Assembly (NCBI GenBank): GCA_039804165.1
Contig: JBDRZZ010000005.1
Coordinates: 27,290-91,289, forward strand
Length of the DNA stretch: 64,000 nucleotides
Source of the DNA: a candidate division WOR-3 bacterium
GTDB taxonomy: Bacteria; Hydrothermota; UBA3072
Direction: 5' to 3'
How positions within the stretch are numbered: position 1 is the first letter of the stretch; each line of letters starts with the position of its first letter. A model generated the notes under the pieces. It made no database searches, was not told the DNA's origin, and saw only the letters and a list, made by a program, of their open reading frames with translations. The position numbers were made by a program, and so were the translations under genes. This document shows positions 26,336 through 46,511 of the stretch, one piece after another.

Positions 26336-27604
26336 TTACCGAGAGTACCTAATCTTTATTGAGTTCTTATGGGCAGATAGTCCCTCAATTTCTGCGAGTT
26401 TTTCAGCTATTGGTCCTATTTCTTTGAATCCTTCTTTTGTTACTCTTAATGTCGTTTGGAGTTTCAAAAAATCTTTAACACCAAGACCTCCTGTGTATTT
26501 GGAAGCAGTATTTGTGGGTAAAGTGTGATTAAGTCCACTTGAGTAATCTCCAAGAGCTTCAACAGAATATTTTCCAATAAATAAAGAGCCGTAGTTCCTA
26601 AGCTTATTTAAAACATTTTTTGGATTTTTTATGTGTAATTCTAAATGTTCCGGAGCCATTTTATTTGCAAAGATAATTCCTTCCTCCATATTTTCTAAGA
26701 GAACTATGAGCCCTTTATTTTCTATGGATACTCTTGCTATTTCTTTTGTTTGAAGATTTTCTATTTGTTTATTTATTTCCTTTATTACTTTGGATGCAAG
26801 TTCTTTAGAAGTTGTGGCAAGGATTGGGAATGCTTCCTTATCGTGTTCGGCTTGGGATAGTAAATCCATAGCTATTAGTTCTGGTTCTCCACTTTCATCT
26901 GCAATTATCATTATTTCTGTTGGTCCTGCTATGAAGTCTATCCCTACATCTCCGAAAACTTCCTTTTTTGCAGATGCTACATATTTGCTTCCTGGACCGA
27001 CTATTTTATCAACTTTTTTAATGCTTTCAGTTCCATAAGCTAAGGCTGCAATTGCTTGGATTCCTCCTATTTTGTAGATTTCTTTTATTTTGAGAAAATA
27101 AGCAGTTGCTAAAATTAAAGGGTGAATACTATTTTCAAATCTTGGAGGGGAGACTACGGCTATTTCAGATACTCCGGCTACTTGAGCAGGTATTGCACAC
27201 ATAATCAAGGTAGAAACCAAGGGGAAATTCCCACTCGGGACATAAATTCCTATTCTTTCAATCGGAATTACTCTTTGTCCTGTAAATACACCTTTTTGAA
27301 TTTCAAATTCGAAATCTTTAAATTGCTCTTTTTGCTTTTCTGAAAATTTTTTTATATTTTTAGCTGCTTTTTCTATTGCTTTTAAATCTTCTTTTTTTGC
27401 TTTTCTATAAGCATTTTCTATTTCTGATTGACTAACTTTTATTTCCTTTAGAGAGACTTTATCATATTTTTTTGTATATTTTATAAGAGCTTTATCTCCT
27501 TTTTCTTTTATTTCTTTAATTATCTTTTGAATAAACCTTTTATCTTCAATTTTTTTATATTCAAAAAAATCTTCTTTTATTTCCCTATATTTTATAATCT
27601 TCAT
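26336..27604 (-). CDS. hisD: Histidinol dehydrogenase
   Basis: KIVGPGSKYVASAKKEVFGDVGIDFIAGPTEIMIIADESG...LSQAEHD. Confidence 0.9.
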   Translation of the reverse strand: MKIIKYREIKEDFFEYKKIEDKRFIQKIIKEIKEKGDKALIKYTKKYDKVSLKEIKVSQSEIENAYRKAKKEDLKAIEKAAKNIKKFSEKQKEQFKDFEFEIQKGVFTGQRVIPIERIGIYVPSGNFPLVSTLIMCAIPAQVAGVSEIAVVSPPRFENSIHPLILATAYFLKIKEIYKIGGIQAIAALAYGTESIKKVDKIVGPGSKYVASAKKEVFGDVGIDFIAGPTEIMIIADESGEPELIAMDLLSQAEHDKEAFPILATTSKELASKVIKEINKQIENLQTKEIARVSIENKGLIVLLENMEEGIIFANKMAPEHLELHIKNPKNVLNKLRNYGSLFIGKYSVEALGDYSSGLNHTLPTNTASKYTGGLGVKDFLKLQTTLRVTKEGFKEIGPIAEKLAEIEGLSAHKNSIKIRYSR

Positions 27605-27605
27605 T

Positions 27606-28178
27606 TTATATTTCTCTTTCTTTAATAAAATTTTTTAATATATTCATCCCTACCTCAGTTAAGATTGACTCAGGATGGAATTGAATTCCTTCAATGTTAT
27701 ATTTTTTGTGTCTTATTCCCATAACTATGTTGTCTTCTGTCCATGCTGAAAGTTCAAAACAGCTTGGAAGGCTATCCCTTTCTACTATTAAAGAATGATA
27801 ACGAGTGGCAACAAAAGGATTTTCAATATTTTCAAAAATTGTTTTTCCATCATGATAAATTATAGAAGTTTTCCCATGGAGAATTTTCTCAGCTCTTTTA
27901 ACTTTTCCTCCAAAGACTTCTCCAATTACCTGATGCCCAAGGCAAACACCCAAAATAGGAATTTTTCCTTTAAAATGGAGAACGACTTCTGGGCTTATTC
28001 CTGAATCTTTTGGGGTTCCTGGGCCTGGTGAGATAATTATGGTTGTTGGGTTCATTTTCTCTATTTCCTCAATAGAAATTTTATCGTTTCTTTTTACTTT
28101 AATTTTTGCTCCTAATTCTCCCAAATATTGAGCGAGATTATAAACAAAGGAATCGTAATTGTCTATTAAGAGAATCAT
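27606..28178 (-). CDS. trpG: Anthranilate synthase component II / glutamine amidotransferase (TrpG/PabA)
   Basis: [23 protein letters not shown]...GVCLGHQ...QFHPES class-I GATase triad. Confidence 0.85.
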   Translation of the reverse strand: MILLIDNYDSFVYNLAQYLGELGAKIKVKRNDKISIEEIEKMNPTTIIISPGPGTPKDSGISPEVVLHFKGKIPILGVCLGHQVIGEVFGGKVKRAEKILHGKTSIIYHDGKTIFENIENPFVATRYHSLIVERDSLPSCFELSAWTEDNIVMGIRHKKYNIEGIQFHPESILTEVGMNILKNFIKEREI

Positions 28179-29626
28179 TGGGAAAAATCGATTGCTCTTT
28201 TTAAAGCGCTCATTTTGTTAATTGTCTCTTTATATTCGAGTTCAGGAATTGAATCTGCAACTACTCCACCTCCTGCTTGGATATATAACATTCCTTTGTA
28301 TATTACAATTGTCCTTATGGCAATACAAAGATCCATATTTCCTGCGAAACCAAAATACCCTAATGCTCCCGCATAAATTCCTCTTCTTACTGGTTCTAAT
28401 TCATCAATTATTTCCATTGCTCTTATCTTTGGTGCGCCAGAAACAGTTCCTGCCGGAAATGTTGCTGCCACAAGATCAAAAGCATCTTTATCAGAAAGGA
28501 GGTTCCCATTAACCACAGAAATAATGTGCATAACCTGAGCGTATTTTTCAATTCGCATGAATTCTGAAACCTTAACACTTCCAAATTCACAAACTCTTCC
28601 AATGTCATTTCTTGCAAGGTCAACAAGCATCACGTGTTCTGCTAATTCTTTCTCGTCATTTAATAATTCTTTTTCTAAGAGTTTGTCCTCCTCTTCTGTA
28701 TTACCCCTTCTCCTTGTTCCTGCAATTGGGTTGCTTGTCACAAGACCTCCTGGTTCAAGCTTTATTAAAGTTTCTGGAGAAGACCCAAGAATGAATAAAT
28801 CATTGAACCTGAGGTAATACATATAAGGCGAAGGGTTTGTAATCCTGAGAGCTTTGTATATATTCATTGGATCTTTTTTTATTGGAGCTTTAAATCTCTG
28901 AGAGGGAACAACCTGGAATATATCTCCTTTATAAATATATTCTTTTGCCTTTTTCACCATCTCGCAATATTCTTCTTTTGTAAAATTTCCAATAAGTTCT
29001 ATTGGTTCTCCTTCTTTTATTTTATATTCTTTTTCTTCTGCCCCTTTTATAATTTTTACCAGTTCTTCTATTCTTTTGTTTTCTTCTTCCTCATCATTTG
29101 TGCTGTAGAGTATTATGTCCACAGTATCATTTTTATGACTAAAGAGGATTATTTCCGAAGGGAACATAAAATAAGTTTCAGGAGCTTTTATCTCGTCAGG
29201 ATTTTTATCCGGTATTTCTTCAAAAAATCTAACTGTGTCATAGGAAAGATAACCCACTGCTCCTCCTGAGAAACCAGGAATGTATGGATAGTTGGTTACT
29301 ATAGAGATAAGTTCTCTAATTTTATTAAGAGGGTTTCCCTTTTCTTTATATTTTTTTCCATAAACTTCAATTTCTATGTCTTCTTTATAACTTTTTAATA
29401 TAATAAAAGGTCTTCCACCTAAAAGAGAATATTCCCCTCTTTTTTTGAGGTGAACAATTGACTCATAAATAAAACTATAAGGATCTTCTTTATAAATTCT
29501 TTCAAACACTGCCTCAGGAGAAGATTTTGCTTTTATTTTCTTATGTATAAACTTAATTTTTTTCGACAATATTGTTTTTACCACTAATCCTCCTGAGTGT
29601 CCGGATAAACTCAGGGAAGGAAACAT
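28175..29626 (-). CDS. trpE: Anthranilate synthase component I. The start codon is uncertain
   Basis: Chorismate-binding C-terminal domain ([11 protein letters not shown]...GYFGF..). The first ATG overlaps aroA by 74 nt, so the true start is probably downstream. Confidence 0.85.
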
Positions 29627-30860
29627 TGATACACTCTGCTTCCAAGATTGTTGTTTCTCCTTCTGCTAAAAGACCGCCAATTGCTAATGTCATTCCAATT
29701 CTATGATCTCCAAAGCTTTCACAAATATTTCCTTTTAGTTTTACTGGTCCTTCTACTATAAAACCATCTTCTTTTTCTTCAATTTTTGCTCCTAATTTTC
29801 TTAATCCCTCTGTTATTGTATGAATTCTATCGCTCTCTTTTACTCTAAGTTCCTTAGCGTCCCTTACAATTGTTTTCCCCTTCGCCTGGGTTCCTGCAAG
29901 AGCAAGGATAGGAAGTTCATCTATTAGTTTTGGTATAATATCTCCTCCAATTTCTATTCCTTTTAAACTGCTGCCTTTTATAAGTATATCAGCTACTGGC
30001 TCATTACAAATCTCTTTTTTGTTTAAGATAGAAATCTGGGCGCCCATTTTTTTTAGAATTTCAATGATTCCTGTTCTCGTTGGATTTATTCCAACTTGTT
30101 CAATTAAGAGTTCTGAATCTTCTTGGCAAGATGCAAGAACAATGAAAAAAGCCGCTGAGGAAATATCTCCTGGGATAAAAACCTCTTGAGCGTTTAGCTT
30201 ATTTTTTTCTTTTAAGATTATCTTATTGCCCTTAAATTCTACTTTTGCCCCAAATAAATTTAACATTCTTTCTGTATGATCTCTACTTTGAGTAGGCTCT
30301 TCTATTATTGTATTTCCCCTAGCATAAAGGGAAGCGATCAATAAAGAAGATTTCACTTGTGCGCTTGGAATAGGTAACTTATAGTCTATTCCTTTTAACT
30401 TCGTCCCTTTTATTGCAAGAGGTGCATATTCATCGTTATTTCTCCCATATATTATAGCTCCCATCCTTCTAAGAGGCTCAACAATTCTTTTCATAGGACG
30501 GCTGAGGAGGGATTTATCTCCTGTAAGAATAGAGAAGAAATCTTGTCCTGCTAAAAGACCTGCGATTAATCTCATAGATGTTCCTGAATTTCTGCAGTCT
30601 AAAATATTAGATGGTTCAGCTAATCCGGTAAGCCCTTTTCCTTCTATTTCTAATACTTTATTATCTTCTTTAATCTGAACTCCAAGCTCTTTCATAATTT
30701 CTAAGGTGGAGTAACAATCTTCGCATGTTGAATAATTTCTTAGAATTGTTTTCCCTTCAGCGATTGATCCAATTATTAAACCACGATGAGTTATTGACTT
30801 ATCTCCACTTACTCTTATTTTGCCTTTTATCTTGGGAGATTTTGATAAAATGAGTTTCAC
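29553..30860 (-). CDS. aroA: 3-phosphoshikimate 1-carboxyvinyltransferase (EPSP synthase)
   Basis: GKIRVSGDKSITHRGLIIGSIAEGKT...LDCRNSGTSMRLIAGLLAG. Confidence 0.9.
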   Translation of the reverse strand: MKLILSKSPKIKGKIRVSGDKSITHRGLIIGSIAEGKTILRNYSTCEDCYSTLEIMKELGVQIKEDNKVLEIEGKGLTGLAEPSNILDCRNSGTSMRLIAGLLAGQDFFSILTGDKSLLSRPMKRIVEPLRRMGAIIYGRNNDEYAPLAIKGTKLKGIDYKLPIPSAQVKSSLLIASLYARGNTIIEEPTQSRDHTERMLNLFGAKVEFKGNKIILKEKNKLNAQEVFIPGDISSAAFFIVLASCQEDSELLIEQVGINPTRTGIIEILKKMGAQISILNKKEICNEPVADILIKGSSLKGIEIGGDIIPKLIDELPILALAGTQAKGKTIVRDAKELRVKESDRIHTITEGLRKLGAKIEEKEDGFIVEGPVKLKGNICESFGDHRIGMTLAIGGLLAEGETTILEAECINVSFPEFIRTLRRISGKNNIVEKN

Positions 30861-30862
30861 TT

Positions 30863-31684
30863 TTAGTCCTTTACAAGATAACTTCCTAAAATTTTCATAT
30901 AAGTTACGACTTCTTTTAAAGTCTCTACAGCATGGCTACAATTTTCATTTTCAAGACTTCCCCTAAAATCTATATAGAAGAGATAATCGTATGGTTTTCC
31001 AAAGGTAGCTCTAGATTCTAATTTGGTCAGGTCTATATTTCTCAAGGCAAAAATGCTTAGGCAGCGAAACAAGATTCCGGGTTCGTTTTTTACTCCAAAT
31101 ACAAGCATTGTTCTTGCATTTTCTCCTGAGTAGACTTCTTTTTTCTTTGATATTATAAGAAATCTTGTAAAATTATGAGGATGATTTTCAATTCCACTTT
31201 TTAATTTTTTAAAGCCGTAAAGTTTTGCCACTTGAGGTCCTGCTATAATCGCTACATCTTTTCTCTTTTCCTCTTTTACAATTTTTGCTGCGCCTGCGGT
31301 ATCGTAAACTGAGACCACTTTATATTCAGGATGTGAAGAAAGAAATTCTCTGCATTGAGCCAAAGCTTCAGGATGAGACCAAACTTCTTTTATATTTTCT
31401 AACTTTATTCCTTTAGGAGCCAATAGATTATGGACTATTTTTTGCTTCACTTCCCCAATCACCCAAACATCAAACTCAAGAAGTAAATCATAGTTTTGGT
31501 GAAGACTCCCTGTAAGGGAATTTTCCACAGGAACAATTCCATATGTATCTTTTTCTTTTTGAACTCTTTCAAAAATTTCTCTGAATGTTTTAACCCCAAT
31601 TCTTTTCACCTCCTTAGGGAAGAATTTATAGGAGGCAACTTCGCTATTACAACCTGGTTCTCCTTGATATATTACCTTTTTCAT
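30863..31684 (-). CDS. pheA: Prephenate dehydratase (monofunctional, with a C-terminal ACT domain)
   Basis: [15 protein letters not shown]...[14 protein letters not shown]... PDT fold and an ACT domain. No chorismate mutase domain. Confidence 0.85.
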
Positions 31685-32697
31685 AGTTCTCTCCCTACAA
31701 CTTTCGCTATTTTTCTTAAATCTTCCATTAATTCCTGAAAGGTAAGAGGAGTGATTGATTGTTTACCATCTGAAAGTGCGTGGGAAGGATCTGGGTGAAC
31801 CTCTATAATTAATCCGTCAGCCCCAGCTGCAATTGCAGCTCTTGCTAAGGAGGGAACATATCTACTATCTCCAGCAGGATGGCTTGGATCTACAACAATT
31901 GGTAAGTGAGAAAGATTTTTTATTACTGGGATTGTACTTATGTCAAGAGTATAACGAGTATAGGTTTCAAAAGTTCTTATCCCTCTTTCGCATAAAATTA
32001 CGTTTGGATTTCCTTCCGCTTGAATATATTCAGCTGACATAAGCCATTCTTCAATTGTAGCAGATATACCTCTTTTTAAAAGAACAGGTTTGTTAAACCT
32101 TCCAACTGTTTTTAGCAGCTGGAAATTTTGCATATTTCTAGCTCCAATTTGAAGGATATCTGCGTATTTTGCAACAAGTGGGACGTCAACTTCTGAAAGA
32201 ACTTCAGTTATTATGAGAAGACCCGTTTTTTCCCGTGCTTTCCCCAATATTTTTAGTCCCTTTTCTCCTAGCCCCTGAAAACTGTAAGGGGAGGTTCTTG
32301 GTTTAAAAGCACCTCCTCTTAAGATCTTTCCTCCTGCTTTTTTAACTTCTTGTGCTACTTTCAAAACAATTTCTTCTGATTCCACAGCGCAAGGACCAGC
32401 CATAACAACGATTTCTTTCCCTCCAATTGAAACCCCATCTATTTTTACAATTGTATCTTCAGGATGAAATTCTCTACTTCCAAGTTTAAAAGGACTTAAA
32501 ATTGGAGTAATCTTTTCTACGCCTGGAAGAGGTTCAATTGCAAGAATAATCCTTTCTCTATCGGTTGCTCCAATTACATGAATTACAGTTTTTTTTACCC
32601 CTTTAAAAACTTTTGTATCATAACCAAGCTCTTTTATTTTTGCCCTTACTTGGTTTATATCTTCTTTTGTTGCAGTTGAGCTCATCGTTATTACCAT
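31681..32697 (-). CDS. 3-deoxy-7-phosphoheptulonate (DAHP) synthase, type I-beta with an N-terminal ferredoxin-like regulatory domain
   Basis: N-terminal roughly 70-aa regulatory domain, then a KDO8PS-like core ([12 protein letters not shown]...[26 protein letters not shown]...VDPSHPAGD). Confidence 0.85.
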
Positions 32698-32727
32698 ATT
32701 ATTTCCTCCCTAATATATTTAACCTTT

Positions 32728-33507
32728 TCATAGTTTTGTTGCCTCTTTAAGTTGTCGGGTTAAATCTATCAAATTTTCTTTATTTATTATTGCTTCTATT
32801 ATTCTACTTCCTAAAATTACACCATCGGCTTTTCCGTGAAGCATTTTTATTTGCTCTGGGGTTGAGATTCCAAATCCCACAGCTATTGGTAGGTCTGTTA
32901 ATTTTTTTACTTCTTTTAGGAATTTATCAAGATAGCTTGGGAGTCTTTCTCTAATTCCTGTGGTTCCTGTTACTGTAACGCAATACACAAAACCCCTTGA
33001 TACGCTTACAATTTTTTTCCTTCTATTTAATGGAGAGGTAGGGGTTAAAAGAAAGATAAGTTCTGTTTCGTATTCTTTAGATAAAGAAATCCATTCTGAT
33101 GCTTCTTCAACAGGTAAGTCTGGAATTATAAGACCACTTACCCCACTGTCTTTCATATCTTTTATGAATTTTTCCTGTCCGTAGGCAAGTAGGGGATTCA
33201 AATAGCTCATGAAAACAAGAGGGACATTCACTTTTAATTTTTTTACAGCAGAAAGTATTTTCTTTAATGTAGTCCCTTTTGTTAAAGATATTTGTGAGGA
33301 GTGTTGTATTGTGGGGCCATCCGCAATGGGATCTGAAAAAGGTATTCCTATCTCAATTATATCTGCACCACTTTTTGATAGAGTTTTTATAATCTTCATT
33401 GATTCTCCAAGATTTGGAAATCCTCCTGTTACATAAAGAATTAAAGCCATCTCATTTTTTTCTTTTAATTCTTTGAATTTTTCTTGGATTTTTGAAGATC
33501 CCATCAT
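32728..33507 (-). CDS. trpA: Tryptophan synthase alpha chain
   Basis: [48 protein letters not shown]. Confidence 0.9.
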
Positions 33508-34685
33508 AATAGTCCTTCAACAATTTCTAAGTCTTTATCCCCTCTTCCGGAAAGATTAACAATAATTATTTTATCTTTTGGTATATTCTTTCCAATTTTT
33601 ATTGCATAGGCAAGGGCATGAGAACTTTCTAGAGCTGGAATTATTCCTTCGGTTTTTGATAGAATATCAAAAGCTTCTAAGGCTTCTTTATCTTTTACTG
33701 CTGTAAACTCTACAATCCCTTCTTCTTTTAGATAAGCATGTTCTGGCCCTACCCCAGGATAATCCAAACCAGGAGCAATTGAGTGAGTTTCCATTATTTG
33801 TCCGTCTTTATTTTGTAGGAGATAACTCATAGCTCCGTGAAGGGTTCCAATTCCTCCTTTGCATAGACTTGCCGCGTGTTTTTTTGTATCAAGCCCAAGC
33901 CCAGCTGCTTCGACTCCAATCATTTTAATTTTTTCTCCTATAAAGGGATAAAAAATTCCTATGGCATTACTCCCTCCACCTACGCAAGCTATGATTAAAT
34001 CTGGGAGTCTATTTTCTTTTTCTAAAATTTGTGACTTTGTTTCTTTTCCTATCACAGATTGAAAATCTCTTACCATCATTGGATAAGGATGAGGCCCTAC
34101 CACAGAACCAATACAATAGTGAGTTGTTTCTACATTAGTAACCCAATCTCTTATAGCTTCATTTATTGCATCTTTAAGAGTTTTCGAACCTGAGTCCACT
34201 GGAATTACTTCTGCTCCAAGAAGTTTCATTCTAAAAACATTCATTTTTTGTCTTTTTATATCCTTTGTTCCCATATAAACGTGGCACTCTAAACCCAAAA
34301 GGGCGCAAGCTGTTGCAGTTGCTACTCCATGTTGACCTGCCCCAGTTTCAGCAATTACCCTTTCTTTTCCCATTTTTTTTGCTAAGAGAGCCTGACCCAA
34401 GGTATTATTTATTTTATGAGCCCCTGTGTGCATCATATCTTCTCTTTTTAGATATATTTTTGCTCCGCCTACTTTTTGGGTAAGCCTTTCTGCGAAGTAT
34501 AAAGGAGATGGCCTCCCAGCGTATTCCTTTAAATAGTAATTTAACTCATCATTAAAATTTTTGTCTTCTTTAAGAGATTTATATGCTTTTTCTAATTCAG
34601 AGACTGCATTCATTAAAACTTCAGGGATAAACTTCCCTCCAAATCTTCCAAAATATCCTCTTTCATCGGGTAAATTATAATTCAT
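33504..34685 (-). CDS. trpB: Tryptophan synthase beta chain
   Basis: [10 protein letters not shown]...HTGAHKINN...GVGPEH. PLP enzyme. Confidence 0.9.
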
Positions 34686-35115
34686 TTTTACTTTCCTTTA
34701 ATAGATAATTAAGAGCAAGGATATATCCATACCAACCAAGGCCACTGATTTGTCCTTTACATACAGGAGCAATCATACTTGTGTGTCTAAATTCTTCTCT
34801 ACCGTATATATTACTTAAATGGACCTCTACTGTTGGGATTTCCATAGCTTCAATTGCATCTCTAATCGCAATTGAGGTGTGAGTATAACCACCCGGATTT
34901 ATAACTATTCCTGAATATCCTTTTGCCTTATGGATAAATTCCACAATTTCTCCTTCGCTATTTGACTGCTTTATTTCTACCTCAATTTTATTTTCTTTAG
35001 CAAATTTTTTTATCTCTTCATTTATTTTTTCGAGATTCATTTTTCCATAAATTTCCGGTTTTCTTTTGCCTAAAAGATTAAGGTTTGGTCCATGAATTAC
35101 AAGAAATTTTTGCAT
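34675..35115 (-). CDS. aroQ: 3-dehydroquinate dehydratase, type II
   Basis: [24 protein letters not shown]...[16 protein letters not shown]. Confidence 0.9.
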
Positions 35116-38582: not shown

Positions 38583-39187
38583 GTTCTCACCTCCTCAATG
38601 AATTTTTTAACTTTTTCTTTATCTTTTTTACCCTCTATTTTTTCAACTCCTGTAGATACATCAACACCATAAGGAGAAAGCATTTTTATTACAATTTTGA
38701 CATTTTCAGGGGAAAGACCTCCGGCAATTATTAGAGTTTTTTTAATTCCTCTTGCAATTTCCCAATTGAATGTTTTTCCGCTTCCTTTTCCTGGATCGAG
38801 AATATATGCTGAGACAGAATATGGTTCCATTTTTTTTATGAGATTTTCTTTTGAATCAAAAGGAGAGATAGAGATTCGCTTTATAACTTTTCTATTCACT
38901 TTATTACAATACTCTGGAGATTCATCACCATGTAATTGAACCACATCTAAAGGGACAAATTCCGCTATTTCGTTAACTTCTGAAAGAGGAGCATCCATAA
39001 AAACTCCAACTACTGTAATAAATGGGGGAAGTTTTTTTACTATCTCTTTGGCCTTTTGTGGTGTGATTCTTCTTTTCGATTCTGCGAAGACAAAACCTAT
39101 TGCGTCTGCTCCAAGTTCTGAAACCATTAGGGCGTCTTCCTCGTTTGTAATTCCGCAAATTTTTAGTTTTGTTCTTCTTGTAGCCAT
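38576..39187 (-). CDS. trpF: N-(5'-phosphoribosyl)anthranilate isomerase
   Basis: KLKICGITNEEDALMVSELGADAIGFVF...VQLHGDE. Confidence 0.85.
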   Translation of the reverse strand: MATRRTKLKICGITNEEDALMVSELGADAIGFVFAESKRRITPQKAKEIVKKLPPFITVVGVFMDAPLSEVNEIAEFVPLDVVQLHGDESPEYCNKVNRKVIKRISISPFDSKENLIKKMEPYSVSAYILDPGKGSGKTFNWEIARGIKKTLIIAGGLSPENVKIVIKMLSPYGVDVSTGVEKIEGKKDKEKVKKFIEEVRTC

Positions 39188-40254
39188 TTTTTTCCTTCTT
39201 CCATTACATTAATAAAATTTTTCTTTTTACCATCTTTCACTGATTTTATTACATATCTAAGAGCACTCTCTAAGTTTTTATATAATTTATTCTTAAAAGG
39301 ATTGAATTTCTGGATCGCATAATATAAATAAGGATTTTCTGTGATAACGTCTTTTGTTGTCTTTAATTGAGAATTAAAAGTTGTGCTTGCCATTTCCTTT
39401 AATTCTTCATACTTATACTCTCCATTCATTAAAGCTTTCATAAATATTATGTTAATTACATGGGATAAACCAAGGATATAGGAAATTTTTTTGTCGTGTT
39501 CTTCAAGGGAAGTTTCTATAATTGATACGCTTGTATCTTTAAAGAATTTTTTTACTTTTTCATCTGCAAAATTATTTCCACAATTACAGATGCAGATTAT
39601 TCTATCAGAAAGGGTGCTTACTTTTGGTCCAAACATAGGATGAATGCTTGTGTAGGCTATTTTGTGTTTAATGGCTTTTTTGATTGCAGATTTTAAAGGG
39701 CTTTTTAAACTTGCTATATCAAAGACGATCCCTTTGAAATTCAATTTGATTATCTTCTCGATAATTTCTGGCATAACTTCAAAAGGAGTGGCTATTAAAA
39801 TACAGGTTGCTTTATTAATTGCATCTTCCAAATTGTCAAAGCATTTAAAATCTTTTGATTTCCCTTTTGTATCATAAATTAGCACATGATGCCCTTGATT
39901 CGTGAAAAAGTTTGCGAACCATCTTCCCATTTCTCCAAGTCCACCAATGATTAGAATGTCTTCTTTATCTCCTGTGTATGAAGGGGATTGTAGTTTTTCC
40001 TGCTGGAGCTTAGATTCCGTTATTATATGTTGCATAATAGCCTTTACCAAATCCTTTGAAAGTTTCTCTTTTGAAGCTGCCTGAAGAGCGTTTTTTATAA
40101 CCTCTTTTTCTACCTTCCAGTCCCTTAAAGGGATTCCCTTTTCTTTTTTCCTTTTTCCTATTTCTTTTGTTATTGAAAGTCTTTTTCCTATAAGTTTAAT
40201 TATTTCTCTATCGACCTTTTTTACTTCTTTTCTAAGTTTTTCAATTTCTTCCAT
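39163..40254 (-). CDS. tyrA: Bifunctional chorismate mutase (AroQ class) / prephenate dehydrogenase (T-protein)
   Basis: N-terminal CM_2 helix bundle (LRKEVKKVDREIIKLIGKRLSITKEIGKRKKEKGIPLRD) and a Rossmann-fold PDH (ILIIGGLGEMGRWFANFF). Confidence 0.8.
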   Translation of the reverse strand: MEEIEKLRKEVKKVDREIIKLIGKRLSITKEIGKRKKEKGIPLRDWKVEKEVIKNALQAASKEKLSKDLVKAIMQHIITESKLQQEKLQSPSYTGDKEDILIIGGLGEMGRWFANFFTNQGHHVLIYDTKGKSKDFKCFDNLEDAINKATCILIATPFEVMPEIIEKIIKLNFKGIVFDIASLKSPLKSAIKKAIKHKIAYTSIHPMFGPKVSTLSDRIICICNCGNNFADEKVKKFFKDTSVSIIETSLEEHDKKISYILGLSHVINIIFMKALMNGEYKYEELKEMASTTFNSQLKTTKDVITENPYLYYAIQKFNPFKNKLYKNLESALRYVIKSVKDGKKKNFINVMEEGKKWLQEEQN

Positions 40255-40256
40255 TT

Positions 40257-41036
40257 TTACCTTCCAAGAAGTTCTTTTATTTTTTCTCCAGGTTCTCTTT
40301 CCCTTAATAGTGTTTCTCCAACTAAAATTGCGTTAAATCCTGCTTCTTCTAAGATTTGGACGTCCTCTCTTTTTTTAATACCACTTTCACTCACTGTTAT
40401 ATATTTCTCAGGGATAAATTTCTTTAAATTTATTGAGTTGTCAATAGATGTTTTGAATGTTTCGAGATCTCTATTGTTTATCCCTATTATCTCTGCTTCG
40501 GTAGAGAAGACTTTCTGTAGTTCTTCTTTTTTGTGGATCTCTACAAGGGGATAAAGTCCAAGGTCTTTTGCAAGTTGGATAAATTTTTTTAATTGTTCTA
40601 ATTCAAGGATTCTTGCTATTAAAAGGATTGCATCAGCTCCAAGATAGGCGGATTCATATATTTGATATTCGTCTATGATGAAATCTTTTCTTAATATAGG
40701 GAGCCCAACTCCTCCTTTTACAAGAGGTATGTCACTATCTTTGCCCCAGAAGAATTTTGCATCAGTTATAATAGATATTGCACTCGCCCCAGAACTTTCA
40801 TATTCCCTTGCTATAGCAATAGGATCAAGATTTTCCATTATTATTCCAGAAGAAGGAGACATTCTTTTTATTTCAGCAATTAGAGAAATTTTGTTTCCCT
40901 CTAAAGCTTTCTTAAAATCTCTTGTTTCTTTTGGTATTTTTTGGATAAAAGTTCTAAGAGGAATGAAACTCCTTCTTTTCTCAATTTCTACTTTTTTAAA
41001 ATCGAGGATCTTTTTTAGAATATTTTTTTCTATCAT
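40257..41036 (-). CDS. trpC: Indole-3-glycerol phosphate synthase
   Basis: SLIAEIKRMSPSSGII...ILLIARIL...IGINNRDLETF. Confidence 0.9.
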   Translation of the reverse strand: MIEKNILKKILDFKKVEIEKRRSFIPLRTFIQKIPKETRDFKKALEGNKISLIAEIKRMSPSSGIIMENLDPIAIAREYESSGASAISIITDAKFFWGKDSDIPLVKGGVGLPILRKDFIIDEYQIYESAYLGADAILLIARILELEQLKKFIQLAKDLGLYPLVEIHKKEELQKVFSTEAEIIGINNRDLETFKTSIDNSINLKKFIPEKYITVSESGIKKREDVQILEEAGFNAILVGETLLREREPGEKIKELLGR

Positions 41037-42043
41037 AGAGCTATCTTCTTTAATAGGTCTAATTTTCTTAATGCTTCTCCTGAATCGATGGATTCCTTTG
41101 CTTTTTCGATACCTTCCTCTAAGGAGTTTGCTTTCCCTGCAATATATATAGCTGCTCCTGCATTTAGCAAAGTAACATCTCTTTTAGGACCTTTTTCTCC
41201 TTTGAGAATACTAACTGTTATTTTTGCATTTTCTTCTGGGGTTCCTCCTTTAAGTTCTTCTAAATTTGCCCTTTTTATTCCAAAGTCTTCCGGTGTTATT
41301 GTATATTCTATTATTTCCCCCATTTTTAATTCACTTACAAAAGTTTTTCCTGTTGTTGTTATTTCATCTAAGCCATCTTCTCCATGCACAACCATACAGT
41401 GAATTGATCCAAGATTAAGAAGAACGTTAGCAATTGTGGAGGTTAATTCTTTAGAATAAACACCCAATAGTTGTCTTTTTGCTCCTGCAGGATTTGTTAA
41501 AGGACCAAGGATATTAAATATTGTTCTAATTCCCATCTCTCTTCTTGGCCCAATTGCGTATTTCATAGCGGGATGTAAAAGAGGTGCAAATAGGAATCCA
41601 AATCCTGCTTCTTGTATACACTTTTCTACTTTTTCTGGTGGATTTTCAATATTGATTCCGAGCTCTTTTAACAAATCTGCACTTCCGCATCTACTTGATA
41701 CAGAACGATTTCCATGTTTTGCGACTTTACAATTTGCTCCTGCAGCAACAAATGCGCTTATTGTGGAGATATTGAATGTTCCTACTCCATCACCACCTGT
41801 TCCACAGGTATCTATGAGGCATTCAATAGGAACATTTATCTTTGTTACTTTTTCTCTCATAGCTCTTACAAATCCAGTTATTTCATCAACGGTTTCTCCC
41901 TTCATCCTCATTCCGGTTATGAGCGAGGCTATTTGAGCATCTGTTGTTTCTCCGTTCATAATTGAAAGAGCCACTTTATATGCCTCTTCCTGAGTTAGAT
42001 TTTCTTCTTCTACAACTTTTTTAATTGCATCTTTAATGTTCAT
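41033..42043 (-). CDS. trpD: Anthranilate phosphoribosyltransferase
   Basis: DTCGTGGDGVGTFNISTISAFVAAGAN...KHGNRSVSS. Confidence 0.9.
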   Translation of the reverse strand: MNIKDAIKKVVEEENLTQEEAYKVALSIMNGETTDAQIASLITGMRMKGETVDEITGFVRAMREKVTKINVPIECLIDTCGTGGDGVGTFNISTISAFVAAGANCKVAKHGNRSVSSRCGSADLLKELGINIENPPEKVEKCIQEAGFGFLFAPLLHPAMKYAIGPRREMGIRTIFNILGPLTNPAGAKRQLLGVYSKELTSTIANVLLNLGSIHCMVVHGEDGLDEITTTGKTFVSELKMGEIIEYTITPEDFGIKRANLEELKGGTPEENAKITVSILKGEKGPKRDVTLLNAGAAIYIAGKANSLEEGIEKAKESIDSGEALRKLDLLKKIAL

Positions 42044-43245
42044 TTTCTATACCTCCTTAATTCGCTTAAAACTTCGTCAAAAGAAATATTACTCTTTGCC
42101 AAAGCAAAGGTCGCGAGGTATAATAAATTTGCAGCCTTTAATTTAATCTCTTCTTTATCTTTTCCTTCTAAAAGTTCCTTATTTAAGTCTTCATAGGAGA
42201 CTCGGTTTTTAGGATCTCTTATCTTGTCTTTAATTATTTTATACAATTCTTTCAAATTAAAGTTCTTCTCTCCAAAACAAGTGTAAGTTTCGAGGTGACA
42301 AGCAACTCCTTTTTGTTGAACTGTGGCAAGTAGGGTATCTCTATCACAATCAGCTCTTATTTTTAGAAGCTTTTGGATGTTTCCAGAAGTTTCTCCTTTC
42401 ATCCAAAGTTTTCCCCTCGAGCGAGAAAAATAGCACATATTACCTGTTTCAAAAGTTTTTCTTAAAGAATCTTTATTTGAATATGCAAGCATTAAAACTT
42501 GACCTTCATCATCTTGAGTAATTGTTGGTAAGAGGTCTGTTTTCCAATTAAGAGATTCTATAAACCCATCTTTTAAAGAAATTTTTCCTGTATATAGAGC
42601 CATTCCAAGTTGGACATCACATCCCAAGTTAGCTAATTCTTTTATTTCTTCAATTGTGCTTACACCTCCTGCTACTGTAACTTTATTTTTTGTCTCTTTT
42701 AACAATTTCTTTACAATCTCAAGGTTTATACCTTTTAAGGTTCCTTCTTTTTCTACACAGGTAAATAAAAATTCGGAGGCAAATTCTTCTAAATCTTTTA
42801 TCGCTTTATAAAGAGAAATTCCTGTAGAGTGCTTCCAACCTCTTGTTACAATTATTTCATTTAAAGCATCTATGGCTATTATTATTTTCCCCTTACCTAC
42901 TTTTTTTTTGAGCTCTTTTAAGAAGGTCTTGTTTATCTTATCATTTTCAAAAGCCTTAGACCCAATTATAACCTTTTTTGCCCCAAGAGAAATCATCTCT
43001 TTGGCTTTTTCTACACTTCTAATTCCACCTCCAACCCTGCATTCAGCTATTTTTAGGATATTTTTGATAATTTCTTTATTTTCTCCTTTTTCCATCGCGG
43101 CATCAAGGTCAATCACTGCGATTTCTCCATATTTATCGAATTCTTCTGCCAATTTTAGAGGTTGGCTATGTTCCAACATTTTTTCTTTTCCTCTTCTCAG
43201 TTGGACAGCTTTTCCTTCCATTAAATCAATAGAAGCCACAATCAT
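42040..43245 (-). CDS. Trifunctional fusion: ProFAR isomerase (HisA) + phosphoribosyl-AMP cyclohydrolase (HisI) + a short phosphoribosyl-ATP pyrophosphatase-like tail (HisE)
   Basis: Residues 1 to about 228 form the HisA barrel (MIVASIDLMEGKAVQLRRGK...VGGGIRS...). Residues about 235-327 are HisI (VLMLAYSNKDSLRKTFETGNMCYFSRSRGKLWMKGETSGN...CDRDTLLATV). Residues about 328-401 are HisE-like (LKELYKIIKDKIRD...SYEDL...AANLLYLATFALAKSNISFDEVLSELRRYRK). It is a single ORF in one frame. Confidence 0.8.
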   Translation of the reverse strand: MIVASIDLMEGKAVQLRRGKEKMLEHSQPLKLAEEFDKYGEIAVIDLDAAMEKGENKEIIKNILKIAECRVGGGIRSVEKAKEMISLGAKKVIIGSKAFENDKINKTFLKELKKKVGKGKIIIAIDALNEIIVTRGWKHSTGISLYKAIKDLEEFASEFLFTCVEKEGTLKGINLEIVKKLLKETKNKVTVAGGVSTIEEIKELANLGCDVQLGMALYTGKISLKDGFIESLNWKTDLLPTITQDDEGQVLMLAYSNKDSLRKTFETGNMCYFSRSRGKLWMKGETSGNIQKLLKIRADCDRDTLLATVQQKGVACHLETYTCFGEKNFNLKELYKIIKDKIRDPKNRVSYEDLNKELLEGKDKEEIKLKAANLLYLATFALAKSNISFDEVLSELRRYRK

Positions 43246-43994
43246 CTAACGGTAATCCCCCTTTCTTTTAGATATTTCTTTATATCTTTTATTTTATATT
43301 CACCATAATGAAGTAGAGATGCAAGTAAAACACTGGAAGCTTTTCCTTTTAGAATGGCAAGGGCTACTTGTTCGAGATTCCCTGCTCCTCCTGAGGCGAT
43401 TACGGGAATATTCACTGCTTCTGAGACCATTTTAGTGAGTTCAAGATCATAACCTTCTTTGGTTCCATCCTTATCTATTGAATTAAGAAGAATTTCTCCT
43501 GCTCCTAATTCTTCACCTTTTTTTGCCCATTCTATTACAGATAATCCTGAGTTAAATCTACCTCCGTGAGTATATGCTATCCATTTGTTCCCTTTTCTTT
43601 TAGCGTCTATTGAAAGCACGATACATTGAGAACCAAAAATTTTAGCTCCTTCACTTATTAAGGAGGGATTTTTTATGGCACTTGTGCAGATTGAGACTTT
43701 ATCTGCCCCAGCATTTAAGACTTTTCTTATATCTGAAACAGAACGGATCCCCCCTCCCACAGTTAGAGGGATAAAGACTTCTTCAGAGACCTTTTTTACA
43801 ACTTCTATCAAGATTTCTCTACTTTTGTAAGATGCCCCTACATCTAAAAACATAAGTTCATCTGCTCCATCTTTGTAATAAGTTCTTGCAAGTTCAACAG
43901 GGTCTCCAACGCTATTTAGATTTTTAAATTTCACTCCTTTTACAACCTTCCCATTTTCTACATCAAGACAAGGGATGATTCTTATCGCTAACAT
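43242..43994 (-). CDS. hisF: Imidazole glycerol phosphate synthase, cyclase subunit
   Basis: MLAIRIIPCLDVENGKVVKGVKF. Start taken at the internal ATG 43994, because the track start is a TTG four codons upstream. Confidence 0.9.
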   Translation of the reverse strand: MLAIRIIPCLDVENGKVVKGVKFKNLNSVGDPVELARTYYKDGADELMFLDVGASYKSREILIEVVKKVSEEVFIPLTVGGGIRSVSDIRKVLNAGADKVSICTSAIKNPSLISEGAKIFGSQCIVLSIDAKRKGNKWIAYTHGGRFNSGLSVIEWAKKGEELGAGEILLNSIDKDGTKEGYDLELTKMVSEAVNIPVIASGGAGNLEQVALAILKGKASSVLLASLLHYGEYKIKDIKKYLKERGITVR

Positions 43995-44587
43995 TTTTCT
44001 ACCCAATTTCTTAGGAGTTTTAGACCCATTTCTCCACTTTTTTCAGGATGAAATTGAACTCCTATTATATTACCTTTTTCTATTATTGAAGGATAATTCT
44101 TATAGTAATTGGTAGTAGCTACAATTATTTCAGAATCGATAGGTTCTACAAAATAACTGTGCAAAAAATAAAAATAAGTTTTATTTTTGATTCCTGTAAG
44201 GAGAGGAGAATTCTTTTTAATTTCTATTTCGTTCCATCCTATTTGAGGAACTTTACCTTTTTCAAATTTAAGACATTTCCCCTTAAAGATTCCAAAGCCT
44301 TTTGATTCTTTAGATTCCATACTTTCTTCGAAGAGAAGTTGCATACCAAGGCAGATGCCCAAAAAAGGTCTATTATTAATTAGCCAATTCTTTATTATTT
44401 CATAAAAACCATTTTCTTTTAATTTATTTATTGCTGCTTCAAAAGCCCCAACTCCTGGAAGAACAATTTTATTAATTTCTTTTAAATCTTTTGGCTCCGT
44501 TGCTACTATAGTCTCTTTTTTTAGAAAATTAAAAGCTTTCTTTACCGAGTGGAGATTCCCTGCACCATAATCAATTATTGCTATCAT
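43988..44587 (-). CDS. hisH: Imidazole glycerol phosphate synthase, glutamine amidotransferase subunit
   Basis: MIAIIDYGAGNLHSVKKAF...GICLGMQ...QFHPEKS. Confidence 0.9.
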   Translation of the reverse strand: MIAIIDYGAGNLHSVKKAFNFLKKETIVATEPKDLKEINKIVLPGVGAFEAAINKLKENGFYEIIKNWLINNRPFLGICLGMQLLFEESMESKESKGFGIFKGKCLKFEKGKVPQIGWNEIEIKKNSPLLTGIKNKTYFYFLHSYFVEPIDSEIIVATTNYYKNYPSIIEKGNIIGVQFHPEKSGEMGLKLLRNWVEKC

Positions 44588-45176
44588 TTTCTATTACTCC
44601 TTTTGTGCTCGGTATGTCTTCAATTGCTCTTTTATCCAATGAGCAAGCCATTTTCATTGCCTTTCCAAAAGCCTTAAAAATGGCTTCAATTTTGTGGTGG
44701 TCGTTTCTGCCATAAGGCATCCTTACTACAAGATTTGCCCCAAGATTTGTAGCGAATCCATAGAAGAAATCTTCGATAAGGTCTGTGTCTAAGTCTCCGC
44801 AAAATCTCCTTTTAAATTTTGCTTCAAATTGGAGATATGGTCTTCCGCTTATGTCCACAGCTACAACAGCAAGGGCCTCATCCATTGGATAAACAAAATA
44901 TCCTGCCCTATTAATTCCCCTTTTGTCTCCAAGAGCTTTTTTGAAGCTAAGACCAAGGGTAATCCCACAATCTTCTACAAGGTGATGTTGATCTACGTTT
45001 AAATCGCCAATTGCTTTTATTTGTAAATCAAAAAGACCGTGTTTAGCGAAATTCTCCAGGGAGTGATTTAAAAATCCAATTGGAGTTTCAATCTTGTAAG
45101 TTCCGCTCCCATCAATATTTAATTCAACTTTTATCTCTGTTTCTTTTGTTTTTCTTTCAACAGATGTTTTTCTCAT
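44571..45176 (-). CDS. hisB: Imidazoleglycerol-phosphate dehydratase (monofunctional)
   Basis: KTKETEIKVELNIDGSG...DQHHLVEDCGITLG...RNDHHKIEAIFKAFG. Confidence 0.9.
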   Translation of the reverse strand: MRKTSVERKTKETEIKVELNIDGSGTYKIETPIGFLNHSLENFAKHGLFDLQIKAIGDLNVDQHHLVEDCGITLGLSFKKALGDKRGINRAGYFVYPMDEALAVVAVDISGRPYLQFEAKFKRRFCGDLDTDLIEDFFYGFATNLGANLVVRMPYGRNDHHKIEAIFKAFGKAMKMACSLDKRAIEDIPSTKGVIENDSNN

Positions 45177-46221
45177 TTATAACCTCTCTCAATCTTTCAA
45201 TAAAAATTTTATTTTCTTTGGTTTTTCCAATTGTTACCCTCAATGTGTTTTTCAATCTTGGGTTGTCGAAGTATCTTAAAAGGACTCCCTTTTTATAAAG
45301 TTCTTCAAATAGTTCTTTTCCAGAAAGAAATTTTGTTTTAAAAAGGATAAAATTAGTGTAAGAAGGAATGGGTTCAATTCCTGGAAGATCTTGTAATTTG
45401 GAGAAAATATTCTCTCTTTCTTTTATGATTTTTTTTACAACCTCTTCTTTATATTCCTTATTTTTTAATAAAACCTCTCCCGCCACCTGGCTGAATATTC
45501 CCAAGGAGAAGGGAAGCTTTGCCTTTTGAATTTGGCTTGCTAAAGTTTCATTACTTAAAAGATAGCCGATTCTAAGGCCTGCCAGTCCAAAAGCTTTAGA
45601 TAGAGTTCTAATTATAACGAGATTTTCATATTTATTTAATAGGGGAACTGCGGTTTCCTTTGAGAATTCGAAATAAGCTTCGTCTAAAACTAAAACTCCA
45701 TTTATATTTTTTGCAATTTCTTCTATTTCTGGAAGAAAAATTGTTGTTCCTGTAGGATTGTTTGGGACTGCTAAAACGACCATTTTTGAATTTTTTCCTT
45801 TTTTGATTATTGATCTTATATCAAAACTGAAATCTTCTAAAAGGGGAACCTCTATTATTGTTAGATTCATAATTTTAGCAAGATAAGTGTATATTGGAAA
45901 ACTTGGAGAAACGAAAGTAACTTTATCTTTTTTTTCACAGAATGTTTGGAAGACTGCTTGAATTATTTCATTTGAGGCATTCCCTGCCACTATTCCATTT
46001 TTGGGAAAATTATTATATTTAGCAATTGCTTCAACTAAAGGATTGGCAGTTCGTGGCGGATATCTATTCCAGTTTATTTTAAGCATTCTTTTTAATATTT
46101 CTTTTTTTAAATTTAAAGGAACATCATAAGGAGACTCATTTTGATTTAGCTTTACTTCATATTTCTCTTGTGGAACTTTGTATTCTTTCAATTCCTGAAT
46201 TTCTTTTCTTACATATTTCAT
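45157..46221 (-). CDS. hisC: Histidinol-phosphate aminotransferase
   Basis: Class-II aminotransferase (NESPY...YPP...LSKAFGLAGLRIGY PLP lysine). First gene of the supraoperon, with RBS AGGTGGT. Confidence 0.85.
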   Translation of the reverse strand: MKYVRKEIQELKEYKVPQEKYEVKLNQNESPYDVPLNLKKEILKRMLKINWNRYPPRTANPLVEAIAKYNNFPKNGIVAGNASNEIIQAVFQTFCEKKDKVTFVSPSFPIYTYLAKIMNLTIIEVPLLEDFSFDIRSIIKKGKNSKMVVLAVPNNPTGTTIFLPEIEEIAKNINGVLVLDEAYFEFSKETAVPLLNKYENLVIIRTLSKAFGLAGLRIGYLLSNETLASQIQKAKLPFSLGIFSQVAGEVLLKNKEYKEEVVKKIIKERENIFSKLQDLPGIEPIPSYTNFILFKTKFLSGKELFEELYKKGVLLRYFDNPRLKNTLRVTIGKTKENKIFIERLREVINEKNIC

Positions 46222-46483: not shown

Positions 46484-46511
46484 ATTATAAAAAGAAGTAA
46501 AGTTATGTCAA
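46484..46511 (-). promoter_or_regulatory. Near-consensus sigma70-type promoter at the head of the aro/trp/his supraoperon (distal candidate, about 255-nt leader)
   Basis: Minus strand TTGACA-N16-TATAAT (plus 46506-46511 and 46484-46489). An alternative proximal TGnTATAAA-like -10 lies near 46240. Confidence 0.4.

Follow-up and report, generated by a model that had tools for sequence, protein, structure and literature searches.

The region described here lies within a 64,000-nucleotide stretch of contig JBDRZZ010000005.1 (positions 27,290 to 91,289 of the forward strand) from assembly GCA_039804165.1 of a candidate division WOR-3 bacterium, and we refer to this whole stretch as the window. Between window positions 46221 and 26336 there are 21 consecutive open reading frames (ORFs), all on the minus strand, that encode enzymes of histidine and aromatic amino acid biosynthesis in the order hisC, hisB, hisH, hisF, a hisA-hisI(-E) fusion, trpD, trpC, tyrA, trpF, aroE and aroC, followed by an aroK-aroB fusion, aroQ (type II), trpB, trpA, DAHP synthase, pheA, aroA, trpE, trpG and hisD. 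Gene identities come from NCBIfam and Pfam profile searches, the majority at or above curated equivalog cut-offs, and they bear out the order and common strand given in the initial annotation, as well as its observation that the trp genes are scattered among the aro genes as D-C, F, B-A and E-G. The tight packing noted there is equally apparent: neighbouring genes overlap at 16 of the 20 junctions, in eight cases by 4 nt in an ATGA-type arrangement, and the other four junctions have gaps of 1, 2, 2 and 30 nt, the last being the largest in the block. The GC content is even throughout.

The first gene, hisC (45157..46221; all coordinates in the block are on the minus strand), encodes histidinol-phosphate aminotransferase (TIGR01141, 318.8 bits against a cut-off of 276.6), and is followed by hisB (44571..45176; NF002111, 266.7 bits), which specifies imidazoleglycerol-phosphate dehydratase only, the phosphatase domain being absent, by hisH (43988..44587; TIGR01855, 244.4 bits), and by hisF (43242..44006; TIGR00735, 365.1 bits), for which the ATG at codon 5 is the likely start. 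The 401-aa hisA-hisI fusion (42040..43245; PF00977, PF01502) carries a HisE relic, its PF01503 match being sub-threshold. Then come trpD (41033..42043; TIGR01245, 444.3 bits), trpC (40257..41036; NF001377, 321.2 bits) and tyrA (39163..40254; NF008400, 181 bits), in which the only chorismate mutase domain of the block (PF01817, CM_2) is fused to prephenate dehydrogenase (PF02153, PF20463). These are followed by trpF (38576..39187; NF002298, 214.9 bits), aroE (37809..38582; TIGR00507, 222.6 bits), aroC (36670..37812; NF003793, 434 bits), the aroK-aroB fusion (35097..36677; PF01202, PF01761 and PF24621; TIGR01357, 386 bits), the type II dehydroquinase gene aroQ (34675..35115; TIGR01088, 207.1 bits), trpB (33504..34685; TIGR00263, 650.9 bits) and trpA (32728..33507; TIGR00262, 261.9 bits). 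The DAHP synthase (31681..32697; NF006421, 510 bits; PF18152, PF00793) is of the I-beta type and has an N-terminal ferredoxin-like FXD domain which, by comparison with characterised DAHP synthases, is presumably regulatory. The last genes are pheA, encoding prephenate dehydratase with an ACT domain (30863..31684; NF008865, 226.8 bits; PF00800, PF01842), aroA (29553..30860; TIGR01356, 421.8 bits), trpE (28175..29626; TIGR00564, 556.1 bits), trpG (27606..28178; TIGR00566, 261 bits) and hisD (26336..27604; TIGR00069, 526.5 bits), with which the unit ends. As called, aroA and trpE overlap by 74 nt; the true overlap is probably 32 nt, the likely start of trpE being the GTG at codon 15 (position 29584), which lies behind AGGAGG.

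The block encodes all seven shikimate steps, leading from erythrose-4-P and PEP to chorismate, as well as chorismate mutase, prephenate dehydratase and prephenate dehydrogenase, and all seven tryptophan functions, together with histidine steps 3–7 and 9–10; hisG, an active hisE and a histidinol-phosphate phosphatase were not found within it. The initial annotation, which credited the block with the whole shikimate pathway and with the histidine pathway minus hisG/hisZ, was thus right about the former and too generous about the latter, since HisE is present as a relic only and the phosphatase is also missing. HisC is the sole aminotransferase of the block, and it likely serves as the phenylalanine and tyrosine aminotransferase as well, by analogy with hisH(b) of Bacillus subtilis (PMC1173090).

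A scan with AroK-AroB, taking one genome per species, returned ten related loci (L001–L007, L021, L009 and L028). The 21-gene order is identical in L001–L007 and L021, where the proteins are 66–86% identical to those of the window, and it recurs in L009 and L028, also from WOR-3, at 46–68% identity; the WOR-3 bacterium 4484_100 has the same order. The lengths of the overlaps at most junctions are equal between the window and its relatives. L028 has one extra DAHP synthase gene, its tandem paralogues (14046–16085) being 53% and 68% identical to the window enzyme. The flanking genes vary among the relatives and hisD is the last gene shared, which indicates that the conserved unit extends from the leader (described below) to hisD. 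Comparative synteny had been proposed in the initial annotation as a check on the block, and it shows the merged block to be a conserved, tightly overlapping unit across three WOR-3 clades, even where protein identity falls to about 50%; judged from these comparisons, the gene arrangement is far beyond chance.

The window and its relatives differ immediately upstream of hisC. In eight of the ten loci the coding sequence at this place is the C-terminal part of a long-form hisG, whose product is an ATP phosphoribosyltransferase with both PF01634 and PF08029 and whose stop codon overlaps the hisC start; the L002 contig ends just before hisC and is uninformative, and in L005 hisG is absent from this place. 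A full-length hisG of 282–290 aa is present at the same position in L172–L174, L176, L178 and L179/L180. The 64-kb window yielded no hisG in a tblastn search with a relative's HisG (E<=10), and none was recognised by domain scans of 20 further window ORFs, the five ORFs at 58.5–62.6 kb lying outside that scan. In place of hisG the window has a 386-nt non-coding region between hisC and a divergent nagB. Because the relatives carry hisG overlapping hisC, the comparison indicates that the ancestral unit is one of 22 genes, from hisG to hisD, and that the window copy is derived from it by deletion of hisG. The absence of hisG, as originally noted, therefore stands for the window, but as a secondary loss from a 22-gene ancestor and not as an original feature of the block.

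Clues to how the block was assembled come from more distant matches. A metagenome scan with HisC as the query found no close relatives (the best match has 47% identity), and two of the contigs recovered, L083 and L105 (HisC 42–47% identical), contain a compact his operon with overlapping genes in the order hisG-hisC-hisB-hisH-hisF-hisA·I·E(423 aa)-hisD. By this comparison the WOR-3 block is shown to be an older his operon into which 15 trp and aro genes have been inserted, exactly between hisA·I·E and hisD. Such an insertion accounts for the isolated position of hisD at the far end of the block, which had been correctly described as being set apart from the other his genes by 15 aro/trp genes. 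Two further loci, from other metagenome-assembled genomes, have partial clusters in the same relative order, tyrA-aroE-aroC-aroK-aroB-aroQ-DAHPS-aroA in L067 and aroK-aroB-aroQ-trpB-trpA-DAHPS-aroA in L049, and the insert accordingly resembles an aro operon (tyrA-aroE-aroC-aroK·B-aroQ-DAHPS-aroA) that has taken up trp genes between its own. In a tree of 18 concatenated proteins the window is sister to the whole L001–L007/L021 group, and L005 is nested inside that group beside the hisG-bearing L021 (87% identity). Since L005 falls within a hisG-bearing clade and the window outside it, the tree indicates that hisG has been lost twice independently, and each time, as discussed below, together with HisE function; a single loss common to the window and L005 is ruled out by these positions.

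Leader sequences can be compared in three clades, A (L172–L174, L005, L161–L163 and L168), B (L176 and L178) and C (L179 and L180). The clade A leader sits upstream of hisG in L172–L174 and upstream of hisC in the hisG-less L005, L161–L163 and L168. Its promoter has TTGACA and TATATT separated by a 16-nt spacer, and an ATG follows 6 nt further on; clades B and C similarly have TTGACA, a 16-nt spacer and a -10 box followed 6 nt later by a start codon (GTG in B, ATG in C); a start codon this close to the -10 box implies a leaderless mRNA. The ORF that begins here has 55–56 codons in clade A (MNNNDT...RRSFF...R.VRYY[FV][YT]P[YH].[FH]YY(S)WW[HN]K.EN.SEF.A) and 45 codons in each of clades B and C, where it ends in ...NHNHTRFHFNHYWYWHFRAQ and ...PFVYFFNYFWHPGHCLGCH respectively. 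In the last third of the ORF there is a run of codons for aromatic residues and histidine, YYFTPYFHYYWW in clade A, FHFNHYWYWHF in clade B and FVYFFNYFWH in clade C. The leader sequences of clades B and C are unrelated to that of clade A; the design is the same. Of 1308 six-frame background pieces of the AT-rich window, only 5 contain a 12-residue stretch in which at least eight residues are Phe, Tyr, Trp or His and all four are represented, and all three clades have such a stretch at the same relative place in the ORF. The enriched residues correspond exactly to the four end products of the operon. Differences between the clade A leader ORFs include synonymous substitutions and an in-frame 3-nt indel, and these frame-keeping changes point to its being translated.

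In each of these leaders a stable hairpin comes after the codon run. In clade A it has the form TCCGAGTT-N40-AACTCGGAG (-15 to -18 kcal/mol, z -2.8 to -4.1), and a second small ORF has its ribosome-binding site in the 3' arm; in clades B (-33 to -38.4 kcal/mol, z -5.9 to -8.1) and C (-20.3 kcal/mol, z -4.5) the 5' arm overlaps the last regulatory codons, and in a simple masking model a stalled ribosome would cover this arm. The second small ORF of clade A (M[FS]FSV[FI][NK]YY...ETKN.VKKT...; L172 2254–2676, L174 2266–2675, L005 272–639 and L168 971–1336) stays open for about 50–75 codons although its sequence varies, and in six of six clade A contigs its end lies no more than about 16 nt from the start of the first structural gene, which suggests that it may relay translation from the leader to the genes of the operon. 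The 5' end of the leader is, in each of the three clades, complementary to the beginning of the codon run; the pairs are GTGGTTAAG/CTTAACCAC in L176 (3700–3780), ACTGCGC/GCGCAGT in L180 (2754–2830) and TAATAACGA/TCGTTATTA in L172 (2259–2354), and comparison of this helix with shuffled sequences gives p values of 0.02, 0.03 and 0.17, which is suggestive only. A classical attenuator or a Shine-Dalgarno-masking switch was considered and rejected, since the next ribosome-binding site became neither more nor less accessible in any consistent way, whether in minimum-free-energy folds or in folds that placed a ribosome on the codon run or on the stop codon. Rfam models (His, Trp, Phe, Leu and Thr leaders, and T-box) gave no match at the gathering score in the window or in the ten relatives' loci, none at E<=10 in the window leader, and none at E<=1 in three leader-containing loci; the only elements found when the window was searched for riboswitches and other known RNA elements are two tRNAs, both outside the block.

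We favor the view that the relatives' leader is most likely a ribosome-stalling attenuator that reports a shortage of Phe, Tyr, Trp or His. The strongest competing explanation is that the small ORF is not an amino-acid sensor at all, being instead a chance ORF, some other small protein or an RNA element, with the operon either controlled by a protein repressor or uncontrolled. It is true that Phe and Tyr codons are common in AT-rich DNA, such that 2% of background pieces reach eight of 12 F/Y/W/H, that a terminator/antiterminator logic is not derivable, and that change around the leader has been tolerated in the window and in the L005 lineage. A chance ORF would, however, have to have arisen in three clades of unrecognisably different sequence with the same geometry of promoter, start codon at +6 and 45–56 codons, with all four amino acids, including the rare Trp and His, at the same place and followed by a significant hairpin; the substitutions in clade A are frame-preserving and synonymous, and the four amino acids match the four products of the operon exactly. 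We regard an ORF without sensory function as rather unlikely, while recognising that it is the alternative with the largest share of the remaining doubt. How a sensor of this kind would act is a more speculative matter. We tentatively raise the prospect that the leaderless mRNA would carry an attenuator of a new type, in which one codon run reads the charging of tRNA-Phe, -Tyr, -Trp and -His, the 5' end pairs with the start of the run, and the effect is exerted by a hairpin without a canonical U-tract and, in clade A, by a two-ORF relay into hisG. That such an attenuator would differ from the classical 1:2 / 2:3 / 3:4 terminator-antiterminator scheme is put forward with the same reserve.

The window itself has kept the promoter of this system, and the rest has decayed. 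A sigma-70 promoter (46484..46511, minus strand) has TTGACA, a 16-nt spacer and TATAAT, matching the consensus at 12 of 12 positions, and is homologous by alignment to the promoter heading the cluster in the relatives. Nine nucleotides after the -10 box is the ATG of a 43-codon ORF (MINSIFLLKSKNLERRSLFIPPKREFFYLHFQITLLLKRKISL*; 46343..46474, minus strand), a homologue of the Phe/Tyr/Trp/His-rich leader peptide of the relatives that retains only FFY-L-HF, its Trp codons having been deleted. In the rest of the leader (46222..46342, minus strand) the hairpin arms and the second small ORF persist in mutated form, and the ribosome-binding site of hisC, AAGGTGG, derives from the 3' end of the hisG that was lost. 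In the second small ORF the ATG has become TTG and there is an early stop; both arms of the stretch that matches the relatives' hairpin are mutated (-1.8 kcal/mol, z +1.1), and the window leader as a whole folds no better than shuffled sequence (z +0.49). The alignment shows the window leader to be a decayed form of that of the relatives. With a perfect promoter and a decayed leader, the window block is therefore probably expressed largely constitutively, with little or no attenuation, and control would then rest on the ACT domain of PheA and the FXD domain of DAHP synthase.

Taken together, we think it likely, with fair rather than full confidence, that the block is a conserved WOR-3 amino-acid operon consisting of a his host and an aro/trp insert, leader-controlled in the relatives and derived in the window. 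It has the marks of an operon, being co-directional, with a largest gap of 30 nt, a promoter matching 12 of 12 positions upstream, and an order kept in three clades, and we infer co-transcription from this gene packing and synteny. Several observations weigh against the interpretation. The promoter-like and terminator-like matches inside the block are as numerous as expected from shuffled sequence, so that they neither exclude nor show internal signals. The relatives have spacers of 39–347 nt at aroQ|trpB, at trpA|DAHPS and once at pheA|aroA, which are possible sites of internal promoters or terminators. The dual function of HisC, which we hold to be probable, is proposed by analogy. As to the leaders, none has a hairpin directly followed by a conserved U-run, and there is no clear antiterminator; the hairpin arms are invariant within each clade, and support from covariation is therefore absent; the clade A hairpin lies about 5 codons past the codon run, too far for a stalled ribosome to mask it; and the window leader ORF reaches at most five of 12 residues F/Y/W/H, which is not above background.

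The first of these points bears on a second alternative, namely that the genes are clustered but form several transcription units with internal promoters, for example hisC-aroQ, trpBA and DAHPS-hisD, the tight packing reflecting genome streamlining rather than co-regulation. The relatives' junctions at aroQ|trpB (39–275 nt) and trpA|DAHPS (85–177 nt) are repeatedly opened by palindromic spacers, the window contains an 11/12 promoter-like match at 28165–28137, and known supraoperons, such as that of B. subtilis, contain nested transcription units (PMC1173090). In the window, however, aroQ and trpB overlap (-11 nt) and the trpA|DAHPS gap is the 30 nt noted above; the internal promoter and terminator matches equal shuffle expectation, and gene order and overlaps have been kept over some 50% protein divergence. 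The spacers themselves are variable repeat insertions of a palindromic, REP/MITE-like kind (repetitive extragenic palindromes or miniature inverted-repeat transposable elements), for example ACCACAGAGAGCACAGAG...CTCTGTGTACTCTGTGGTT and GCCACTAAG..CTTCGTGGC, and not conserved regulatory sequence. They are found at L001 12001–12234, L004 12001–12168 and 14127–14303, and L003 12001–12241, and the same kind of repeat follows hisD in L001, L003, L004, L005 and L007; none of them is present in the window block. The idea that they are conserved regulatory RNAs was rejected, as they are variable repeats that lie at differing junctions and after hisD, and they could act as partial terminators or processing sites. 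We consider a division into several transcription units unlikely, and a little less probable than a leader ORF without a sensory role. At the other end of the block, hisD is followed in the window by a 102-nt spacer in which no terminator-like structure was found and which has a promoter-like site for the next genes, exbB-exbD-tonB; read-through from the amino-acid operon into this region is possible. These genes, together with a Na/Pi symporter-PhoU fusion, occupy positions 23080–26233 on the same strand downstream of hisD.

If the block is a single operon, the whole unit would be read as one polycistronic message from one strong sigma-70 promoter, with translation coupled at nearly every junction. 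HisC would serve both histidine synthesis and the last step of phenylalanine and tyrosine synthesis, and a shared HisC would therefore provide a metabolic reason for the merger of the pathways. In the relatives the message would start directly at the small ORF, with no 5' untranslated region, and stalling of the ribosome on its Phe, Tyr, Trp or His codons would report a shortage of any of the four end products, the feedback domains (HisG_C, ACT of PheA and FXD of DAHP synthase) adding control at the level of the enzymes. The window copy would have little or no attenuation, and would depend on other parts of the genome for histidine steps 1–2.

The histidine branch of the window shows further signs of change, most clearly in the fusion protein, which is 100% identical to NCBI MEO0293273.1. 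In L001 and L083 the corresponding protein has three domains, PF00977, PF01502 and PF01503, the last scoring 64–76 bits, and the tail of a relative's protein matches the solved HisE structure 1YVW (E 6.9e-10) as well as solved HisIE structures. A triple fusion of about 414 aa is present in 120 of the 120 best database matches listed, which come from WOR-3 and from metagenome-assembled genomes labelled candidate division KSB1 and Planctomycetota, and which are annotated at source only as 'HisI' or 'HisIE'. The catalogue of five his gene fusions in PMC1963479 does not include HisA-HisI-HisE, nor does hisA appear in the list of fused his genes given in PMC10138114. In the window protein, PF00977 spans residues 1–222 and PF01502 residues 252–324 (113 bits), and the zinc site of the phosphoribosyl-AMP cyclohydrolase (PRA-CH) is intact, with C300, C316, H317 and C323 invariant in the alignment. 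The phosphoribosyl-ATP pyrophosphohydrolase (PRA-PH) domain, comprising the tail residues ~325–401, scores 18.1 bits against PF01503, below the cut-off of 21.3, and has no significant match to solved HisE (best E 0.2–0.4). A 12-residue deletion in this tail removes the EEAGE helix, and WEAAD has become LKAAN; the acidic motif is kept in L001 and L083. By these features the HisE domain of the window is a dead relic that has lost its acidic metal-binding and catalytic motifs. The domain is missing altogether from the L005-type proteins (340 aa) and from those of clades B and C (329–331 aa). Clades B and C lack a fused HisE and nevertheless keep hisG, and a separate hisE therefore evidently exists in this phylum; HisE looks like an easily replaced module. 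We infer that histidine steps 1–2 are supplied from elsewhere in genomes of the window and L005 types.

One could alternatively suppose that the his branch of the window is on its way to being lost and that the organism is, or is becoming, a histidine auxotroph, its remaining his genes persisting through their location in an essential aromatic operon or through a need for HisC in phenylalanine and tyrosine synthesis. The absence of hisG from all 64 kb, the HisE relic and the decayed leader are what would be anticipated, and hisC, hisB and hisF have diverged from the sister clade somewhat faster than the trp and aro genes (ratios of 1.8–2.05 versus about 1.4). Yet hisB, hisH, hisF, hisA-hisI and hisD are intact, with equivalog scores, and keep invariant catalytic and zinc-binding residues, and the decay of HisE over the same period shows that selection is still acting on the rest. 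The independent hisG-less lineage of L005 shows no acceleration of its his genes relative to trp/aro, and a separate hisE, as deduced from clades B and C, evidently exists in the phylum. Incipient auxotrophy seems to us improbable, more so than either of the preceding alternatives. Finally, the window derives from a metagenome-assembled genome, and the block might be supposed to be an assembly or binning chimera of separate his, trp and aro operons, a source of error that the initial annotation had itself raised, but this is effectively refuted by the recurrence of the same junctions, often with equal overlap lengths, in over 15 contigs of independent origin, from separate projects and assemblers (metagenome-assembled genomes at NCBI, JGI, ENA and Logan) and by the uniform composition over the block.

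Other features of the window lie outside this unit. A gene at 50115–54740 (minus strand) encodes a 1541-aa protein that combines a Ser/Thr protein kinase, an AAA_16/STAND NTPase, TPR and GAF domains and a sigma-54 activator AAA+ module with its lid, an unusual kinase-STAND-enhancer-binding-protein fusion. A glycan-utilisation cluster at 5236–16811 (plus strand) includes two GH94 phosphorylases and a GH130 phosphorylase, SSF and MFS_2 transporters, an N-acylglucosamine 2-epimerase-like protein and an alpha-galactosidase; upstream of it are genes for a ROK protein and a TetR regulator, with associated coordinates of 4046–5029 and 776–1357, both on the minus strand. Pfam gave no match at E<=1e-6 for two sizeable ORFs, 1541–3784 (minus strand, 747 aa) and 57442–58446 (plus strand, 334 aa). 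The 334-aa ORF is located between a PhoR-like kinase and the five ORFs at 58.5–62.6 kb, which we would guess encode a phosphate transporter.

Supraoperons for amino acid synthesis are a textbook subject in explaining the construction of operons and the reasons for it. At 20 kb and 21–22 genes, the WOR-3 unit is an unusually large joining of the histidine and aromatic pathways, which until now have been known only as loosely 'interlocked' through phosphoribosyl pyrophosphate and a shared aminotransferase. The comparative series keeps the steps of its assembly, in the form of an operon with his genes only, of partial aro clusters and of the merged block, and also its later erosion, with two hisG losses, each accompanied by loss of HisE, and one decayed leader; the window's own copy is an eroded version of the unit. 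An uncultured phylum thereby offers a direct test of competing models of operon evolution. The conserved leader ORF points to a single sensor that may integrate four end products across pathways, possibly in a non-canonical manner and on a leaderless mRNA, and the candidate element, at about 200 nt, is clonable. A widespread HisA-HisI-HisE fusion appears to have been hidden under the annotation 'HisI' or 'HisIE', and the repeated co-loss of hisG and hisE would, more speculatively, imply that the first two steps form a replaceable 'entry module' of the histidine pathway.

Our search of open-access text turned up no account of an operon that merges his, trp and aro genes, or of its leader, and the nearest relatives of each part are found in different systems. 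The fusion protein resembles the bifunctional HisIE enzyme in having PRA-CH followed by PRA-PH, and differs from it in the N-terminal addition of the HisA barrel and, in the window, in the apparently inactive HisE part. The leaders resemble those of E. coli trpL, pheL and hisL, in which a short upstream ORF with clustered codons for the end product is followed by RNA structure. Leaders that respond to more than one amino acid are known, those of ilvGMEDA and thr being multi-amino-acid attenuators. In Corynebacterium glutamicum, the aroR leader peptide sets a precedent by mixing two aromatic amino acids as Phe-Tyr-Phe (PMC11802643). The WOR-3 leaders differ from the classical ones in that four amino acids of two unrelated pathways are combined in one peptide, in that the ORF is long (45–56 codons) and placed at the 5' end of the transcript, and in lacking the canonical terminator U-run; those of clade A also have a second small ORF coupled into the first gene.

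The Bacillus aro-trp supraoperon, to which the block had initially been likened, provides the closest analogy for its origin. In B. subtilis the trp operon is inserted into a six-gene aro operon beside hisH(b) (PMC1173090), giving the order aroF-aroB-aroH-trpEDCFBA-hisC-tyrA-aroE, and the two systems have in common an operon-in-operon origin, shikimate, tryptophan and tyrosine genes with a shared HisC-type aminotransferase, and many overlaps. The likeness holds as an analogy and does not extend to the arrangement, as the defining Bacillus order, an intact trpEDCFBA between aroH and hisC, is not found in the window block. The WOR-3 unit is about twice as large, with 21–22 genes rather than 12; its trp genes are in four pieces rather than in an intact operon; and his genes flank the block, with hisC first in the window, whereas hisC is the only his gene of the Bacillus cluster. 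Host and insert are also reversed, aro being the host and trp the insert in B. subtilis, while in WOR-3 his is the host and aro/trp the insert. Control in B. subtilis is by the TRAP protein and internal promoters rather than by a leader peptide; an Rfam scan of the WOR-3 block, which did not cover mtrB homologues or arrays of (G/U)AG repeats, found no element.

Two other groups of bacteria offer partial parallels. The mixed-function supraoperon of Pseudomonas similarly links pheA, a HisC-like aminotransferase, tyrA and aroA/aroF-type genes (PMC1173090), and many pheA-hisC-DAHPS/aroA loci are found among the distant HisC matches; it is much smaller than the WOR-3 block, however, and lacks the his pathway proper, the trp genes and a complete shikimate pathway. 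The actinobacterial priA neighbourhood also places histidine and tryptophan genes in one genomic context (PMC13055916), but the link there is a single bifunctional HisA/TrpF enzyme that followed the loss of trpF, whereas the WOR-3 unit has both hisA and trpF, and the actinobacterial genes are not gap-free and do not include those for shikimate, phenylalanine or tyrosine. Beside these cases the WOR-3 block works like a supraoperon in Jensen's sense, and it goes further than either the Pseudomonas or the actinobacterial example.

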